Source: an uncultured Clostridia bacterium | GTDB taxonomy: Bacteria > Bacillota > Clostridia > UBA1381 > CAJOGA01 | Length of the DNA stretch: 58,858 nucleotides | Direction of reading: 5' to 3' | Assembly (NCBI GenBank): GCA_905233855.1 | Contig: CAJOGA010000013.1 | Location: 1-58,858 of the forward strand | Part shown: positions 18,003 through 50,085 of the stretch, in pieces | Position numbering within the stretch: the stretch's first letter is position 1 | How the letters are laid out: each line of letters starts with the position of its first letter | Notes under the pieces: generated by a model | Told to the model about the DNA's origin: nothing | The model's database searches: none | The model's input: the letters and a program-made list of their open reading frames with translations, nothing else | Program-made: the position numbers and the translations under genes

Positions 18003-18513
18003 AATCATTATGAAAACAATCTTTTTCCCATCTTATAACATTTGTATCAATATATTCCCATATTTTCCGATAATCTTTTTCGCCGCGAATGATATGGTCA
18101 TGACAAGAGGATTGCCAAATTGGCGTTTTGACGGAATGCATAAACTCATTCCTTGCAATCCTTGTTACTCCCGCCTTGAATTTACCTACAACATTTGGAA
18201 TATCGTATTTTTTGTAGGGAACGGATTTATCCGTTCCGCAATTTATCCCTTTTGCTTCTAAAATCACAATAATCATATGTATGTGATTAGGCATGATAAC
18301 ATATTTATCTATTCGAATATTTTCGTAACGAGGTTCAATATTCATGATTTCTTTATTAACAATTTTTCCTAAATCACTTAAGCACATTTTCTCATTGTTT
18401 ATTTCACCGAATAAATGTAATTTTCGATTTGTACAAATTGTAATAAAATATGCTCCCGGCGTCCCATAATCATATCCTTTTAATCTAGTTGGTTTTCGTT
18501 CTGGTAAATTCAT
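18001..18513 (-). CDS. REP-associated tyrosine transposase-like protein (RAYT / IS200-Y1 HUH family, COG1943-like)
   Basis: 170 aa with RLKGYDYGTPGAYFITICT, the HUH motif MPNHIHMII, and WQSSCHDHIIRGEKDYRKIWEYIDTNVIRW typical of this family. Confidence 0.8.
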   Translation of the reverse strand: MNLPERKPTRLKGYDYGTPGAYFITICTNRKLHLFGEINNEKMCLSDLGKIVNKEIMNIEPRYENIRIDKYVIMPNHIHMIIVILEAKGINCGTDKSVPYKKYDIPNVVGKFKAGVTRIARNEFMHSVKTPIWQSSCHDHIIRGEKDYRKIWEYIDTNVIRWEKDCFHND

Positions 18514-18761: not shown

Positions 18762-18829
18762 TTTAAAACACCTTATAAAGATATTCTAAAATAATTTACA
18801 TTTTTGCGTATTTAGCAAAATTATGATAT

Positions 18830-18997
18830 CCTACGACTATGCGGAATGGATAAATCCATTCCCTACGACTATGCGGAACGGATAAATCCGTTCCCTACAA
18901 CTATGCGGAACGGATAAATCCATTCCCTACAACTATGCGGAATGGATAAATCCATTCCCTACAACTATGCGGAACGGATAAATACGTTCCCTACAAT
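18830..18997 (-). repeat. tandem array of five 32-nt REP-like units (GTAG plus hairpin)
   Basis: The minus-strand unit is GTAGG-GAATGGA-TTTA-TCCATTCC-GCATAGT(T/C). Hairpins lie at 18843-62, 18875-94, 18907-26, 18939-58 and 18971-90. The stem variants T/A and C/G covary. Confidence 0.85.
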
Positions 18998-20764: not shown

Positions 20765-22210
20765 TTACGATAATTTATCTATAGCCATTTTTAATCTTTT
20801 TATCGTTTCGTCTTTGCCGAACAGGTCTGCCAGCTCAACTCCACCGCCCGGAGTTGATAATTTGCCCGACAACGCCACACGCAACGGATACAAAACCTGA
20901 CCGTTTTTCATGCCAAGCTGTTCAACCAAAGCCATCATTTTATCGTGCAGCTCTTCCATACACCAATTTTCCACGCCCTCAAGCACCGGCAGAATTGCCT
21001 GCAAAACAGGAAGCGATGTTTCAGGTGTCGTTTTCATCTTTTTATTCACATACAGTTCGTTATCGTATTCCGGCATAGTCTCCATAAAATCTATCTTTTC
21101 CAATATGTCCGGGAACACTTCTGTTCTGCCCTGCAGTAAAGTATTAAGCTTATTATAGTCTATTTTTGCGGTTTTAAGGACGCTGTCGTAATACGGCTTT
21201 GCGTATTTGCCAAACTCATCCGGCGAAAGGGCACGGATATATTCAGAATTCATCCAGCGTAATTTCTTCTCGTCAAACACAGCAGGCGACTTACTGATAC
21301 CCTTAACATCAAATTCCTGTATAAGTTCGTCGAGCGTGAAAATTTCCTGTTCGGCTCCCGGGCTCCAACCTAACAGAGCAACATAGTTTATCAACGCATC
21401 CTTTAAAAATCCGCTCTTTATAAAATCTTCATACGACGCGTCGCCATCACGCTTTGACAGCTTATGCTGTGCATCACGCATAACAGGAGAAACGTGGATG
21501 TAAGTAGGAATTTCCCAACCGAATGCCTCATACAACAAATTATATTTAGGCGTAGACGACAGATACTCGCTTCCGCGTATAACATGTGTTATATTCATTA
21601 AATGGTCGTCCACAACGTTTGCAAAGTTATATGTCGGCAGCCCGTCAGACTTAAGCAAGACATTGTCGTCCAAAATGCTGTTTTCAACGGTAATCTCGCC
21701 AAACACCTCGTCTTTGAATGTGGTAACTCCCGTTTCAGGTATATTCTGACGAATAACATACGGCACGCCGGCATCAAGCTTTTGCTGTATCTCCTCCTTG
21801 GAAAGATGCAGGCAATGCTTGTCATACTTACCTCCCACACCGGAACCGTCAGATGCGTGCAGTGAATCCAAACGTTCTTTATCACAAAAACAATAATATG
21901 CCGCTCCCATGTCCACAAGCTTTTGTGCATACTCTTTATATATTTCCCGTCTTTCACTTTGGATATACGGGCCGTAACCGCCGTCCTTATCCGGCCCTTC
22001 ATCGTGTATAAGACCGGTTTCCGCCAATGTACGGTATATCAAATCCACAGCACCTTCAACGTAACGCTGTTGGTCTGTGTCTTCTATTCTTAAAACAAAA
22101 CTGCCGTTATTCTTTTTTGCCAGCAAATACGCATATAATGCCGTTCGCAAATTGCCTATATGCATATATCCCGTAGGGCTTGGGGCAAAACGTGTACGTA
22201 CTGTCGCCAT
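20765..22210 (-). CDS. gltX: glutamate--tRNA ligase
   Basis: [23 protein letters not shown] (HIGH) and KLSKRDG (KMSKS). Confidence 0.95.
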
Positions 22211-22301
22211 TTTAACATTCCTTTCAATAAGCACAGAATAATCCCATGCACATTTTTCCTGATTATATATGACCTATTATATATGACATAGTCTGTTTTT
22301 G

Positions 22302-22919
22302 TCAATACATCAAGCGTTTTATTTCACTCACCGCATCTTTATATTCTTCATACGTCATAACGCGGTTTAAATACTTTATAAGCATATTGACGGATATTTT
22401 CCCCGGCAGGTTAAGGCTTTGTGCAAAAGCTTTACGCAAGGACGAAGAATCGTCTCTGCCCCAAAGCCCGTCCTCAAACAAATCCTGTTTGGATATTTTG
22501 CCGCTGTCAGGCAAATCGTCTCGCTTGCAGCCGGCTTTTTCCAACGCCTCAACTATAACGCCGGCATCCATACCCTCAACACCCAAAAGTCCTTCCGCTC
22601 CGGAATGGTCTTTACGCTTTTCCTTCCCATATATTTCCGGTATGTAAGCGTGTTTGATCTTACTCTCCGGCACACCCAAACTTAACAAACGCTGATTTAT
22701 GTGATAGCGTATTTTAAGACCGGCGGAATCGGAATCTGTCATTATGATGACGCCGTCGTTTTGTGCTATTGTTTTTATGGCCTGCATTTGTTCGTCATTT
22801 TTAAACACCGCAAAGCCAAAGGTTTGTATTATATATGCATCAATAACCGACTCAAGCTTTATCTTGTCATACCTGCCTTCGACGATTATTGCCTCTTTTA
22901 TTTTTGTTTTATCCATCAT
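22302..22919 (-). CDS. rnmV: ribonuclease M5-like Toprim domain protein
   Basis: EAIIVEGRYDKIKL...VIIMTDSDSAGLKIR is a Toprim signature. Start ATG 22919 follows GGGGG. Confidence 0.75.
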   Translation of the reverse strand: MMDKTKIKEAIIVEGRYDKIKLESVIDAYIIQTFGFAVFKNDEQMQAIKTIAQNDGVIIMTDSDSAGLKIRYHINQRLLSLGVPESKIKHAYIPEIYGKEKRKDHSGAEGLLGVEGMDAGVIVEALEKAGCKRDDLPDSGKISKQDLFEDGLWGRDDSSSLRKAFAQSLNLPGKISVNMLIKYLNRVMTYEEYKDAVSEIKRLMY

Positions 22920-23154
22920 AAACCCCCGCAATCTTAAGTTTAAGTTTAACATATACAACGTTCGGTTGCAAAGGTTTGTTAAAATTTTTCACCGTTTTGA
23001 CGAAATAATGAAAAATTTTTGAAAAAACATTGCATTTTTTTATTTAATTACTATTGTAAATCAAATAAGATTACTATATAATATATGAGTAATTTTATGG
23101 ATTTTTTTGACATAATGTCAATTTATCATCTATATTTTGAAAGGAATGTATCTG

Positions 23155-24153
23155 ATGAATTTTTTAGAAAGTATCAAAGAAAGAGCTAAGCAAGACAAAA
23201 AGACAATAGTTCTTGCGGAGGGCGAAGAAATCCGTACTGTCAAAGCTGCGGACATCATCTTAAGAGAAGGCATAGCAAACGTTATTTTGTTGGGCAACAA
23301 AGACAAAATAGCAGAAATCTCCAAAGGCTTGGATATTTCAAAAGCAACAATCATAGACCCTGTAAAAAGCGACAAGCTTGAAGAGTTTGCTCAAAAGTTC
23401 TATGAGATGAGAAAGAACAAGGGCGTTACTCCTGAACAGGCATTGGAAACAATGAAGAGTGTTTTGTATTACGGTGTTATGATGGTTAAAGAAAATCTGG
23501 CTGACGGCATGGTAGCCGGTGCTGTTAACGCAACGTCAAACGTTTTGAGACCGTGCCTGCAGATATTAAAAACCGCTCCGGGTACAAAACTTGTTTCGGC
23601 ATTTTTTGTTATGGTTGTGCCTAACTGCGAATACGGTGAAAACGGCATATTCATATATGCAGATGCAGGTCTTAACGAAAATCCTGATGCAGACGCTGTA
23701 AGCGAAATTGCCATTTCTTCGGCTAAATCGTTTAAAGACCTTATTCAGGCAGACCCAAGAATTGCAATGCTTTCATATTCGACTTACGGCAGTGCAAAGA
23801 GTGAGCTTGTTGAAAAAATGCAGCTGGCAACAAAACTTGCCAAAGAAAAACGTCCTGACTTAGATCTTGACGGCGAATTGCAGGCAGATGCCGCTATTGT
23901 TCCCGCTATAGGCAAATCAAAAGCTCCGGGCAGCAAAATTGCCGGCACAGCAAACGTGCTTGTGTTCCCTGATCTTAACTGCGGTAACATAGCATACAAA
24001 CTTACCGAACGTCTGGCAAAAGCAGAAGCTTACGGCCCTATCACACAGGGTATAGCTAAACCGGTTAACGACCTTTCAAGAGGATGTACTGCCGAAGATA
24101 TCGTAGGTGTTTGTGCTATCACATGCGTTCAGTCGCAAATGCAACAAAAATAA
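23155..24153 (+). CDS. pta: phosphate acetyltransferase
   Basis: [25 protein letters not shown]...[17 protein letters not shown], typical Pta. Confidence 0.93.
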
Positions 24154-47322: not shown

Positions 47323-47592
47323 TTATGAATTTTGGATATTTGTGTATTTTGTTTTAGCCTGATCTATCTTACTTTGGTCGGTAGGAGCAACCTGATACCA
47401 ACCGCGTCGGCTCATTTCATTAAACAAATCGAACTGTATATCGTGTTCTTCTTTTAAAATATTCAAAAAATCGTTTCTTAATTGAATGTTTGTACATTCG
47501 TTTGCAAAAGTGTTGTAGCTTGAGCTTATCATTTTTTGACTTGCAATGGAATCGCTCATCATTTCTTTATCGTCTAATACATAATTATTCAT
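47323..47592 (-). CDS. CotF-family spore coat protein
   Basis: 89 aa with DKEMMSDSIASQKMISSSYNTFANECTNIQLRNDF...EEHD, a Coat_F pattern. Confidence 0.75.
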   Translation of the reverse strand: MNNYVLDDKEMMSDSIASQKMISSSYNTFANECTNIQLRNDFLNILKEEHDIQFDLFNEMSRRGWYQVAPTDQSKIDQAKTKYTNIQNS

Positions 47593-48195: not shown

Positions 48196-48224
48196 TTGAC
48201 AACTATGGATAATGATGATATAAT
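48196..48224 (+). promoter_or_regulatory. consensus sigma-A promoter of tRNA-Pro
   Basis: TTGACA (48196-48201), a 17-nt spacer and TATAAT (48219-48224). Confidence 0.8.
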
Positions 48225-48249: not shown

Positions 48250-48326
<77 letters not shown>

Positions 48327-48327
48327 T

Positions 48328-48366
48328 GAAAGAAGCCTGATTTGTCTACCAAATCAGGCTTCTTTC
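48328..48366 (+). terminator. long hairpin after tRNA-Pro (putative terminator or processing stem)
   Basis: GAAAGAAGCCTGATTT-GTCTACC-AAATCAGGCTTCTTTC. It has no clean U tract. Confidence 0.55.
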
Positions 48367-48367
48367 A

Positions 48368-48545
48368 GATATATTCGTCTTCGGCGAGTTATACTGCGCT
48401 GCAATGATAATCGGCTTACGCCGAGTTATATTGCGCTGCGCGCAGTTTGGAAGGCGAATATGATATAACTGCCCTCACAGAGGCAATATAACTGTCCAGA
48501 AGGGACAATATCACTGCCGTCGGAGACGGCAATATCACTTGAAAA
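48368..48545 (+). repeat. array of at least 7 short stem-variable hairpins joined by AT(A/C) or ATGATAT linkers
   Basis: Examples are ACTGCC-ctcacaga-GGCAAT, ACTGTCC-agaag-GGACAAT, ACTGCCG-tcggaga-CGGCAAT, ATTGCGC-tgc-GCGCAGT and AATCGGC-ttac-GCCGAGTT. Confidence 0.8.
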
Positions 48546-48566
48546 ATCACATTTTTATGTTATAAT
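48539..48566 (+). promoter_or_regulatory. candidate promoter with ~160-nt leader for the DHH gene
   Basis: TTGAAA, a 16-nt spacer, then TGTTATAAT (extended -10). Confidence 0.55.
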
Positions 48567-48727
48567 GAATTGCGAAAAGAACTCAACAAATAAATAGAAA
48601 GTTATAATTTTCTTCTCTGTTTTTTAATTTTTCGCTTCTATTATAACACTTTTTTGCGTCTTTGTCAATCATTAACCACCGCGTAAGCGGTTTAGTTCAA
48701 TCGGTATTTGAGGAGGTATCGTAAAGA

Positions 48728-49843
48728 ATGAAACACACAAAACAATGGGTCGCTTTAGGCTGTGCCGTTCTTCTTGTTTTAGTAACGGGAATTAGCTGTT
48801 TCTTTATTGGAAAAGAGTATGAAGCGGCGCAAAACCGGAAAGAACAGGAACTGAACGTTCTTCTGAATCGGAGTGAACTTGAAGGACTTGGAAATGTCGA
48901 AGGGAAGATCTATGTTACCGGGCATAAGAGTCCCGATTCGGACACGGTTTGCAGTTCCATTGCCTACGCGGCTTTACTTCAAAAAATGGGGTATGATGCT
49001 ATTCCCGTAGTGCTTGGCGGTATCAATAAAGAAACCGAATTCATTCTGAAAGAGGCCGGAGTGGAAACGCCCGCGCTGTTGGAGGACGCATCCGGCTTGA
49101 ATTTCGTTCTGATCGATCACGGCGATTACTCGCAATCGGCAGACGGCATGGATAAGGCAAACATTATTTCCATAATAGATCATCACAACAACGGAACCGT
49201 GCAGACCGGCAACCCGATCATCTATGACGCAAGACCTCTCGGATCGACCGGCACGATCGTCTGGATCCGATACCGCAATTACGGGATCGAGCCGGATAAA
49301 CAGACGGCGTTTCTTCTGGTCGGCGCGATCCTCTCGGACACGGGCAATTTTCAAAGCGCTACAACCACGACCGCAGACCGCGAGGCGGTAAATGCTCTTT
49401 GCGATCTTGCGGGGATCTCCGATAAGGACGCTTTGTATCGTGATATGTATAAAAAATCGATCTCTTATGAAGGAATGTCGGACGAGGAGATCTTTTACAG
49501 CGACTATAAGGAATATGAAGTCGGCGGGAAAAAGTATTCTATCGGCTGTATAAGCGTATATGACGAAGATGACGCCAAAGATATGTCGGAGCGAATGAAG
49601 AAGATCGTTCCTCAGGCGGCTGCGACCGGAATGGATATGGCGTTTGCCCAGATCAACATTTTTCACGACGGTATTTCCAGGACCTTTATCGTGCCATCCG
49701 ATGATACCGCTGCGGATGTGATAAGAAGCGCGTTCCCTGACGTGACTTTTGATGGGGTCTCATTCAATTTCAATCCCGGAATGTCCAGAAAGCAAGTACT
49801 TGTCCCGGCGATTACGCCTGTTTTGGAGAGTCTGTCGGAATAG
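48728..49843 (+). CDS. DHH/DHHA2 family phosphoesterase (family II inorganic pyrophosphatase-like) with N-terminal signal/anchor
   Basis: VTGHKSPDSDTVCSSIAYA, LIDHGD, IIDHHNNG and C-terminal GMSRKQVLVPAIT parallel PpaC over the full length. An extra 60-aa N-terminus carries the TM segment WVALGCAVLLVLVTGISCFFIG. The gene is visibly GC-richer than its neighbours. Confidence 0.8.
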   Translation: MKHTKQWVALGCAVLLVLVTGISCFFIGKEYEAAQNRKEQELNVLLNRSELEGLGNVEGKIYVTGHKSPDSDTVCSSIAYAALLQKMGYDAIPVVLGGINKETEFILKEAGVETPALLEDASGLNFVLIDHGDYSQSADGMDKANIISIIDHHNNGTVQTGNPIIYDARPLGSTGTIVWIRYRNYGIEPDKQTAFLLVGAILSDTGNFQSATTTTADREAVNALCDLAGISDKDALYRDMYKKSISYEGMSDEEIFYSDYKEYEVGGKKYSIGCISVYDEDDAKDMSERMKKIVPQAAATGMDMAFAQINIFHDGISRTFIVPSDDTAADVIRSAFPDVTFDGVSFNFNPGMSRKQVLVPAITPVLESLSE

Positions 49844-50085
49844 TTCGACAATCCCGGTTTGCAGAGGTATCGCGTGTACTTTTTAGGTAGTTTTACCTCG
49901 ATTTCGTACCTTTTGGGTAGTCTTTCACATAAAAGAAACCTCTTTAGTCTTTGTCTACCAGGGCAAAAGAGGTTTTTTTTACCGCTGTATAATTGGGAAA
50001 CGCACAATATGAAGCTATAATGATGTTGGAGAATTGAAACCGCTGACCATGATTGATATCATGCCACATAAAGAGAGGAGTCAAC

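Follow-up and report, generated by a model that had tools for sequence, protein, structure and literature searches.

Gut-1 (RF01706) was published as a single 77-nt unit, a non-coding RNA of the human gut only (Weinberg et al. 2010, PMC2864571). The family has been in Rfam since 2010 without a function, a host or a genomic context. Avd, the accessory protein of diversity-generating retroelements (DGRs), is homologous to the 23S rRNA intervening-sequence proteins of Pfam family PF05635 (PMC10053308). Outside DGRs, the PF05635 proteins are widespread and equally unexplained. Here we report on an array of short hairpins in a 58,858-nt stretch of DNA from an uncultured Clostridia bacterium (GenBank assembly GCA_905233855.1, contig CAJOGA010000013.1). 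We refer to this whole stretch as the window, and the array occupies its positions 48368-48538, behind a tRNA-Pro gene. We are confident that the array belongs to the Gut-1 lineage as a variant, and that it has the full form, two-armed and flush with a tRNA gene. The Gut-1 model covers only a generic half of this larger element, which we name the two-armed Gut-1 module, an unpublished class defined in this analysis.

The window array and the published family have in common three or more short covarying hairpins, a constant 7-nt linker and an origin in gut bacteria, and the three consecutive short covarying hairpins by which Gut-1 is recognized are found in the window. The differences are in the linker, GUGAAAU as published and GUKAUAU in the window, and in the extent: a 77-nt single unit as published, and here about 210 nt with two arms, a closing stem, a tRNA-flush terminator and an outward promoter. 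In a permissive Rfam scan of 3 kb, the left arm matches Gut-1 on the plus strand (48366-48436, 33.8 bits, E = 4e-4) and the right arm on the minus strand (48481-48559, 40.6 bits, E = 8e-6). Both arms align over the full model, positions 1-77, and neither reaches the Gut-1 gathering threshold of 50 bits. The GUGAAAU linker is not present in the window array, whose words share with it only positions 4, 6 and 7; mixed arrays at three other loci (L021, L036 and L016) bridge the window-type word and the Gut-1 word. The genome of the window (G000, an assembly of 1.67 Mb in 93 contigs, 97.65% complete) has 13 Gut-1 matches at about ten loci, three of them above threshold, and 21 of 41 genomes of the order have matches. 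Pattern scans of GTDB representatives return more than 120 stretches each for the words ATATCAC and ATTTCAC, most of them in Oscillospiraceae, Acutalibacteraceae and unclassified Clostridia metagenome-assembled genomes (MAGs) from the gut, and genuine hairpin arrays also occur in Akkermansia and in one Bacteroidaceae MAG. An initial annotation of this DNA, made from the sequence alone, had suggested an undescribed repeat family, unless the pattern proved to be part of a known one; it belongs to the lineage of an Rfam family.

Read by eye from the sequence, the array is a series of seven mini-hairpins (H1-H7, Table 1) spaced by a 7-nt word. Each stem abuts a word without a gap, and the stem sequences all differ among the seven hairpins. 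The word of the left arm is of type GTKATAT and that of the right arm is its reverse complement, ATATMAC, such that the arms are mirror images. A long-range closing stem of 12 bp with one G.T encloses the left arm. Because its 5' strand overlaps H1, the two folds are mutually exclusive, and the minimum-energy folds prefer the closing stem over the competing H1. The whole module, about 210 nt long, is oriented: terminator, left arm with closing stem, mirrored right arm and outward sigma-70 promoter. The palindrome that follows the tRNA is the predicted bidirectional terminator of the module, with its A/T tract interrupted in this copy. The parse of the linkers into ATA, ATC and ATGATAT in the initial annotation was imprecise, the constant unit being the heptamer, and the annotation overlooked the mirrored arms, the closing stem and the -35 box next to the last heptamer; the probe it suggested, AATATMACTG, is a poor one, with 2 matches in the window for 0.4 expected. 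It had also called the array non-coding and not a CRISPR, and on both counts we agree. A CRISPR would alternate a constant repeat of 23 nt or more with unique spacers; in this array only 7 nt are constant, what varies is palindromic, and Tandem Repeats Finder detects no tandem repeat at the array, a blank that fits the stem differences from unit to unit.

Folded alone as DNA, the array (48367-48545) has z = -5.65 on the plus strand and -4.45 on the minus strand, and none of 200 shuffles folds as well, which confirms that the hairpin array is real. As RNA, the stretch 48327-48560, which includes the terminator, has z = -8.7. For the covariation analysis, we aligned the window element with 15 elements that have the same word (n = 16). 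The closing stem and six hairpins are 96.0% paired with double changes in 24 of the 43 pairs (95 cells), and have a covariation score of 0.414, compared to 0.124 for shuffled alignments (0/500 as high) and at most 0.098 for slid ones. The closing stem (helix 1) is 98% paired with two covarying pairs across the 16 sequences, and RNAalifold recovers it independently. The complementarity of the ever-changing stems, noted initially within the window, is thus seen among the relatives as covariation. Compensatory change keeps the hairpins and the closing stem, which indicates that the element folds as a single strand, and a covarying stem that spans about 80 nt requires it. The stems are nearly pure Watson-Crick, with 880 Watson-Crick pairs, 3 G.T and 2 A.C. 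One conserved right-arm hairpin includes a tandem G.A on the tRNA-sense strand, found in 15 cells as opposed to 2 for the complementary pattern. The spacing of the heptamers ranges from 16 to 26 nt, so there is no B-DNA phasing, and a rigid protein array on B-DNA is unlikely. We also considered a ladder of four-way junctions, in which the left-arm heptamers would pair with those of the right arm, and rejected it for lack of covariation. The ladder is 89% paired only because the words are constant; it has double changes in 1 of 28 pairs and a score of 0.012 for 0.008 shuffled (80/500 as high, the slid control not being informative here), and the GTT/GTG variation at word position 3 goes uncompensated in 9-15 of the 16 sequences.

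Across loci, arms come in 77 convergent pairs and 1 divergent pair, and the word of the right arm belongs to the class of the left-arm word in 29/29 cases, as its reverse complement, across at least seven word classes. About half of 41 loci have a tRNA or tmRNA gene on the same strand upstream of the array. The gap between the end of the tRNA gene, whatever its isotype, and the first arm is 30-45 nt, and in the two loci with a tmRNA gene it is about 240 nt; RNase P RNA and groEL are also found upstream of arrays. In the genome of the window, four arrays lie directly behind tRNA-Tyr, tRNA-Lys, tRNA-Glu and tRNA-Pro. The position of the window array at a tRNA 3' end, already noted initially, is no accident. 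A perfectly palindromic terminator of the form GA6-stem-T6CA fills the gap after the tRNA, and such a hairpin flush with the CCA is found in 26 loci other than that of the window. A perfect complement of at least 10 nt surrounds the left arm in 22 of the 27 tRNA-oriented loci. The sequence of this closing stem varies by locus, as in GAAATAAATCC, AAATTCGTTCC, TTATATTCGCC, GAAATTTGCCC and TAAATCCACCC, and its absence from the right arm means that the arms are not equivalent. The left arm of the window shares 82-85% identity with those found in other genomes behind tRNA-Asn, tRNA-Thr and tRNA-Gln, which tells us that the module has dispersed as a unit. The same homology between loci, down to individual hairpins, together with change by compensatory substitutions, leaves an origin by template switching, one of the initial proposals, unsupported. 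A heptamer-chain detector finds 11 real chains and 0-2 in shuffled sequence. A genome-wide search for generic short-hairpin chains was abandoned as too noisy, with 57 real and 16 shuffled chains of at least five hairpins and AT-rich junk as the top matches. Among modules with fewer parts in the window's genome, contig C52:897-990 (L009) has a left arm only, of GTGATAT type, with its closing stem intact (TTTTATTCGCC ... GGCGAATAAAA) and no right arm; its arm type is the one that precedes the PF05635 genes of loci L314, L312 and L029.

Each arm matches Gut-1 on its own strand, which could be taken to mean that the window carries two convergent stand-alone small RNA genes, as filed in Rfam, with the right arm transcribed on the minus strand from a promoter at 48668-48640 to the palindromic terminator. 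A perfect 12/12 minus-strand promoter does lie 100 nt to the right, and the bidirectional terminator lies to the left. However, as a general feature of the module we rejected this promoter, which is in none of the 26 other loci and in the window sits inside an insert that the closest relative lacks. The left arm, for its part, begins 1 nt past the terminator, which leaves no space for a promoter, and the arms are unequal, with a closing stem only on the left and the tandem G.A of the right arm on the tRNA-sense strand. We find two such genes very unlikely, and the minus-strand Gut-1 match of the right arm is probably an artefact of the symmetry of the pattern.

The genes that follow arrays connect the module to PF05635, a family of small four-helix-bundle, Avd-like "23S rRNA IVS" (intervening sequence) proteins, here IVP. 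PF05635 genes are found after three arrays, and in 99 of 239 genomes of the order. In the 450 nt ahead of the 30 best-scoring PF05635 genes, we observe two types of upstream region. In type 1, there are two-armed arrays with the words GCTAAAT, GTGATAT, GTGAAAT, GCGATAT, ATGAAG and ATGATG. Type 2, seen in basal lineages, has contiguous heptamers, namely AGTTAGG, GGAGTGT, AATGCGT and, in an intervening sequence of 23S rRNA, GTAAATA. In the 300 nt upstream, 18/30 IVP genes and 0/27 controls have a heptamer in four or more copies (p = 3e-7). The word is clade-specific on the tree of IVP proteins, with 10 changes for 24.4 when shuffled (0/200), and the clades cross host families. Arrays of the GCTAAAT class have a TTGAAA-17-TAGAAT promoter on their upstream side, which makes them the 5' UTR of the IVP gene. 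A uniform cassette of this class recurs in families f2, f3 and f4 (L295, L299, L301, L303, L305, L306, L309-L311, L313 and L315), in the order promoter, 9-bp hairpin at the start site, two-armed GCTAAAT/ATTTAGC array and IVP gene. Near-identical IVP proteins across families suggest a recent horizontal spread of this cassette.

Several further loci show heptamers at IVP genes in other arrangements. A classical intervening sequence within a 23S rRNA gene (L288, G034:C9) has a PF05635 gene with contiguous (A)GTAAAT(A) heptamers just before the start codon. In the Chlorobi bacterium OLB5 (L188:641-740), six contiguous GTGAAAT words lie 45-95 nt upstream of a gene for a distant IVP-like four-helix bundle. 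As support for the IVP link we dropped the contiguous GTGAAAT-like repeats of Bacteroidota and other phyla, since an IVP-like neighbour is present in only 1/8 of them, which is L188. The likeness to Avd and the DGRs lies in the candidate partner, PF05635, and in the L288 relative inside a 23S rRNA intervening sequence behind heptamers; the difference is that IVP cassettes come without a reverse transcriptase, a template repeat or a variable repeat, and nucleic-acid recognition by the IVP is here putative.

In the reading that we prefer, to which we would give somewhat less than an even chance, the module is a cis element of IVP cassettes that folds as a sense single strand, probably RNA, and presents its heptamers to an Avd-like oligomer, and the window copy is a solo, eroding remnant. 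The sense RNA would come either from transcription that continues past the end of the stable-RNA gene or from the IVP gene, as its 5' leader. The flush hairpins would place the heptamers next to one another so that an IVP oligomer could engage them, and the contact between heptamers and IVP might serve autoregulation or the formation of a ribonucleoprotein in a small selfish cassette that parks behind stable-RNA genes. The choice of the sense strand relies on the fixed orientation with respect to the tRNA and the downstream gene, on the strand-specific tandem G.A and on the GCTAAAT 5' UTR, with RNA as the most likely form of that strand. The idea of an iteron-like protein-binding array, one of those in the initial annotation, is in this respect a live one, with PF05635 as the candidate protein. 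A more ambitious proposal, rather unlikely as a whole in our estimation, is that Gut-1 arrays and stand-alone PF05635 proteins are the two halves of one unrecognised type of cassette, small and selfish, with stable-RNA genes as the targets of its colonisation. On its folded single strand, flush hairpins would gather 4-5 copies of the word for a ring-shaped IVP oligomer to read, word and protein would be co-evolving in at least seven specificity classes, the 23S rRNA IVS (with contiguous heptamers) and the tRNA-flush modules (with hairpins between the heptamers) would be two landing sites of one system, and the orphan arrays would be solo remnants. In any case, finding that Gut-1 is half of a module, that PF05635 genes have arrays or heptamers upstream and that the words track IVP clades turns Gut-1 and PF05635 into a directly testable pair.

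A number of observations weigh against the cis-element reading. The word class of the window has a strong palindromic terminator before the array and a promoter after it, so that RNA of the array would arise only via read-through. An RNA-binding protein for GUGAUAU would not read AUAUCAC in the right arm, and mirrored arms fit the recognition of double-stranded DNA better. G.U pairs are at 3/735 (0.4%) in the arrays, unusual for RNA, and at 8/479 (1.7%) in control terminators (p = 0.03); this test decides little, because the control terminators are near-perfect palindromes and themselves almost free of G.U. The link between arrays and IVP genes is also one-way: IVP genes have arrays upstream, and most arrays have no IVP gene. 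In a pattern-selected sample of 77 arrays, about 5 are adjacent to an IVP gene, and apart from these there is no relation among the genes that come after arrays (40 such genes fall into 38 unrelated singletons). Five of the eight array-bearing genomes that we checked have no PF05635 gene, with the heptamers intact. By genome, arrays and IVP genes co-occur (16/21 with arrays, 6/20 without, p = 0.005), an association that does not reach significance inside the two array-rich families (p = 0.18). The tracking of word and clade could be plain cis-linkage of neighbouring DNA and not recognition. The mirrored arms, the near absence of G.U and the carriers without an IVP keep two other explanations in play, one based on duplex DNA and one on mobile repeats.

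The first of these is that the array is a DNA operator or iteron array, in which the heptamers are duplex sites, perhaps with the palindromes extruded and the 7-bp duplexes thereby made adjacent, and an oligomeric IVP or a host factor controls the flush promoter. Right-arm words that without exception are the reverse complement of the left-arm words, in at least seven classes, are what one expects of inverted DNA sites, and the stems are perfect Watson-Crick on both strands. The -35 box starts flush with the last heptamer in 5/27 loci, the window included, arrays of the window word class lie in nominally untranscribed DNA between terminator and promoter, and basal IVP genes have contiguous heptamers. 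The heptad operators of the omega repressor of inc18 plasmids are a known system of this kind, with contiguous heptads 5'-WATCACW-3' in direct and inverted orientation next to promoters. The likeness extends to the word itself, as ATATCAC(T) contains WATCACW, and to its direct and inverted copies beside promoters. But omega heptads are contiguous, whereas the words of the Gut-1 module are split by palindromes of 9-17 nt; no ribbon-helix-helix gene is linked to the arrays, and the words GTGAAAT, GCTAAAT and ATGAAG are off the omega consensus. The 16-26 bp spacing of the heptamers lacks helical phasing, the stems, at 4-7 bp, lack the length for cruciforms to extrude spontaneously, and the covarying closing stem with its span of about 80 nt is impossible in duplex DNA. 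The tandem G.A is only on the sense strand, and the GCTAAAT-type arrays lie downstream of a promoter. All considered, we think that an operator made of duplex DNA is unlikely.

The second explanation is that the module is a selfish repeat similar to REPINs and BIMEs, non-autonomous, copied via single-stranded DNA by an HUH/Y1 enzyme acting in trans, like a REP-associated tyrosine transposase (RAYT), with no cellular function and with the IVP as an occasional cargo. Modules and REP/BIME/REPIN elements are both dispersed extragenic palindromes at the 3' ends of genes, in opposed clusters, and co-occur with RAYT-like genes. Homologous modules lie behind many different tRNAs and after protein genes, the genes downstream of arrays are mutually unrelated, and perfect palindromes with single-strand folding suit single-stranded DNA. 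There are also copies that start at the terminator without a tRNA. In the window's genome, contigs C20 (10585-10790) and C6 (180-300) have the same terminator, AAAAAACGACTTGTTTCGACAAGTCGTTTTTT, and the same first hairpins; the duplication begins at the base after the CCA, and only the C6 copy is behind a tRNA, tRNA-Glu. RAYT-like genes are in 17/21 genomes with arrays and in 6/20 without (p = 0.0016), a stronger co-occurrence than that of IVP genes, and within families f2 and f3 in 16/19 and 2/8 (p = 0.006), in statistics that ignore phylogeny. Against such a repeat, the RAYT-like genes of G000 carry flanking repeats of their own that are different from the heptamer arrays, and neither a target-site duplication nor an empty site was found. 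REP stems are copies of one sequence with a GTAG foot, whereas the stems in the window all differ and only the 7-nt linker is constant. We judge a REPIN-like origin to be quite improbable.

The window's genome has four RAYT-like genes, with 54-72 bits in the genome search for an NCBIfam cut-off of 80 bits; when full protein sequences are scanned, two score 68 and 77 bits. One of the four, coding for a RAYT-like Y1 transposase, lies in the window on the minus strand (18009-18512), and the GTAG-type REPs at 18825-18900 belong to it; the initial annotation had correctly kept these REPs apart from the array. The GTAG-type REP hairpin is GGAACGGATAAATCCGTTCC + CTAC, and an extra copy lies inside the RAYT-like gene, at about 18216-18243. 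The RAYT-like genes on contigs C26, C29 and C13 are flanked by CTGTCCTTTAG-type ends, on C13 also by GTAG-type repeats, and no heptamer arrays were found flanking these three. On C29, an element of about 1.7 kb (21270-23010) has CTGTCCTTTAG-type ends and includes a RAYT-like gene (21331-21837, minus strand) and a gene for a secreted protein. This element interrupts the loop of a module terminator (GAAAAAAGCACTTGC, insert, GCAAGTGCTTTTTT) immediately before a GCGATAT-word array at 23002-23180, and by its placement looks like a guest in the terminator, not the driver of the module.

Integron attC sites, in which the inverse core comes first and the core second, are another system of folded single-strand sites, of the recombination type, with a conserved structure, a variable sequence, 7-nt core words and unrelated adjacent genes. 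They differ in that there is one hairpin per cassette and not an array, and the words of the Gut-1 module converge in 77 of the 78 pairs. We rejected an att site for an integrase, in which the tRNA 3' segment would be duplicated where the inserted DNA ends: in local alignments, a tRNA 3' end and its own right flank have a mean score of 13.3, and of 13.1 with the flanks of other loci. The integration hotspot that was initially suggested thus finds no integrase-type duplication of the tRNA 3' end.

The arrays behind tRNA, tmRNA, RNase P RNA and groEL genes could also be trailers or insulators of benefit to the host, which would reinforce termination, stop 3' exonucleases or protect the promoter downstream against read-through and supercoiling, all without a dedicated protein. 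Arrays are always between a terminator and the next promoter, and they persist in genomes without an IVP. Such a role leaves unexplained the constant heptamers, the mirrored arms, the word classes and the IVP link, and 20/41 related genomes have no Gut-1 match, and we attach very little probability to it.

Returning to the cis element of IVP cassettes, the window copy has no PF05635 gene directly downstream, where there is instead a DHH/DHHA2 gene. The only PF05635 gene of its genome is on contig C28 (16726-17080). That IVP locus (L042, 16386-17080) lies behind tRNA-Asp, tRNA-Thr and a terminator, and has three TATTCAT words and then three ATGAATA, mirrored and without mini-hairpins. The genome has no IVP of the GTGATAT clade, its one PF05635 gene carrying a different word. 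A further perfect complement of the 5' arm of the L042 terminator lies 75 nt downstream, which repeats the "three-copy" logic of the Gut-1 closing stem. The window heptamers have mismatches at 7/56 positions, while each of the 15 relatives has 0-3, which makes the window copy the most degenerate of the sixteen; these mismatches and the 3-bp H2 fit relaxed constraint. The window array is therefore best read, going by its sequence, as an eroding solo copy, an orphan left without its IVP gene, and not as a new repeat family. Its present role is likely that of a structured spacer between tRNA-Pro and the promoter of the DHH gene, to which it would supply the -35 box.

Table 1. Features of the window around the hairpin array, with positions, strands and the evidence for each.
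Feature	Position	Strand	Evidence and remarks
Sigma-70 promoter of tRNA-Pro	48196-48224	+	TTGACA-17-TATAAT, TG-extended; 12/12 matches
tRNA-Pro (CGG), CCA encoded	48250-48326	+	ARAGORN; Rfam tRNA 66.3 bits
Palindromic hairpin TGAAAGAAGCCTGATTTG / CAAATCAGGCTTCTTTCA	48327-48367		18 bp, perfect, from the base after CCA; fold
Linker 0, GATATAT	48368-48374	+	Degenerate first heptamer (alignment columns 1-7); last bases part of closing stem
Closing stem, 5' strand ATATTCGTCTTC	48371-48382	+	Minimum-energy folds, consensus fold, pair counts
Left (F) arm, H1-H4	48375-48444	+	Sequence, Gut-1 match, covariation, identity to other F arms
Hairpin H1	48375-48387	+	5 bp, one G.T
Left-arm heptamer GTTATAC	48388-48394	+	
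Hairpin H2	48395-48403	+	Only 3 bp
Left-arm heptamer ATGATAA	48404-48410	+	
Hairpin H3	48411-48424	+	5 bp
Left-arm heptamer GTTATAT	48425-48431	+	
Hairpin H4	48432-48444	+	5 bp
Closing stem, 3' strand GAAGGCGAATAT	48450-48461	+	Minimum-energy folds, consensus fold, pair counts
Right (R) arm, H5-H7	48463-48538	+	Sequence, Gut-1 match, covariation in helices 5-7
Right-arm heptamers ATATAAC	48463-48469 and 48486-48492	+	
Hairpin H5	48470-48485	+	4 bp
Hairpin H6	48493-48507	+	5 bp
Right-arm heptamers ATATCAC	48508-48514 and 48532-48538	+	
Hairpin H7	48515-48531	+	7 bp
Outward sigma-70 promoter	48539-48566	+	TTGAAA-16-TATAAT, TG-extended; 11/12 matches
Minus-strand promoter	48640-48668	-	Perfect TTGACA-17-TATAAT, TG-extended; 12/12 matches
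DHH/DHHA2 phosphoesterase gene, membrane-anchored	48728-49843	+	Open reading frame; Pfam DHH 58 bits, DHHA2 48 bits

The DHH gene stands where complete cassettes have their IVP gene. The -35 box of the outward promoter begins at 48539, directly after the last heptamer ends at 48538; all five loci with a flush promoter have it at equal offset, and in the window it is predicted to drive the DHH gene. The GC content of the gene is 0.45-0.51, and that of its surroundings about 0.31-0.42. In a metagenome scan, contig L283 has a DHH gene with 93% nucleotide identity to the one in the window, and the homology is limited to 48540-48569 (the promoter) and 48699-49857, with both flanks unrelated. In L283, the DHH unit begins 170 nt past an array with the ATGAAG word, behind a protein-coding gene, and it has a single ATGATG unit after its terminator. 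The view that the neighbouring gene is foreign, put forward initially on its composition, is thus borne out by its GC content and by this 93%-identical copy in an unrelated context beside an array with another word. One comparison, that with L283, supports the array of the window as the probable junction at which a foreign DHH gene unit was placed behind tRNA-Pro. An exact-protein look-up of the DHH protein for strain variants returned nothing on record.

The minus-strand promoter sits inside a 129-nt insert (48570-48698) in the leader of the DHH gene, the insert that is missing from the L283 DHH unit. As a repeat, the insert was rejected, as it has a single occurrence in the genome. Transcripts from the promoter would run antisense through the leader of the DHH gene and all of the array, as far as the palindromic terminator. 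The promoter faces that of the DHH gene, with about 60 nt between the convergent start sites, and the DHH leader may be subject to antisense transcription or to transcriptional interference.

At six other loci (L057, L075, L095, L278, L041 and L022), a conserved "head" of about 50 nt, TCTTGCACCTCC..CGCTTTTATGCTATACTACACATAGGCGGTGA, follows the last heptamer. It reads as a promoter and a ribosome-binding site, and it is fused to unrelated small genes, several of them with an N-terminal membrane anchor. On the other side of the window array, a small open reading frame just upstream of tRNA-Pro (47323-47592, minus strand) codes for a Coat F domain, that of a spore coat protein (Pfam, 80 bits).

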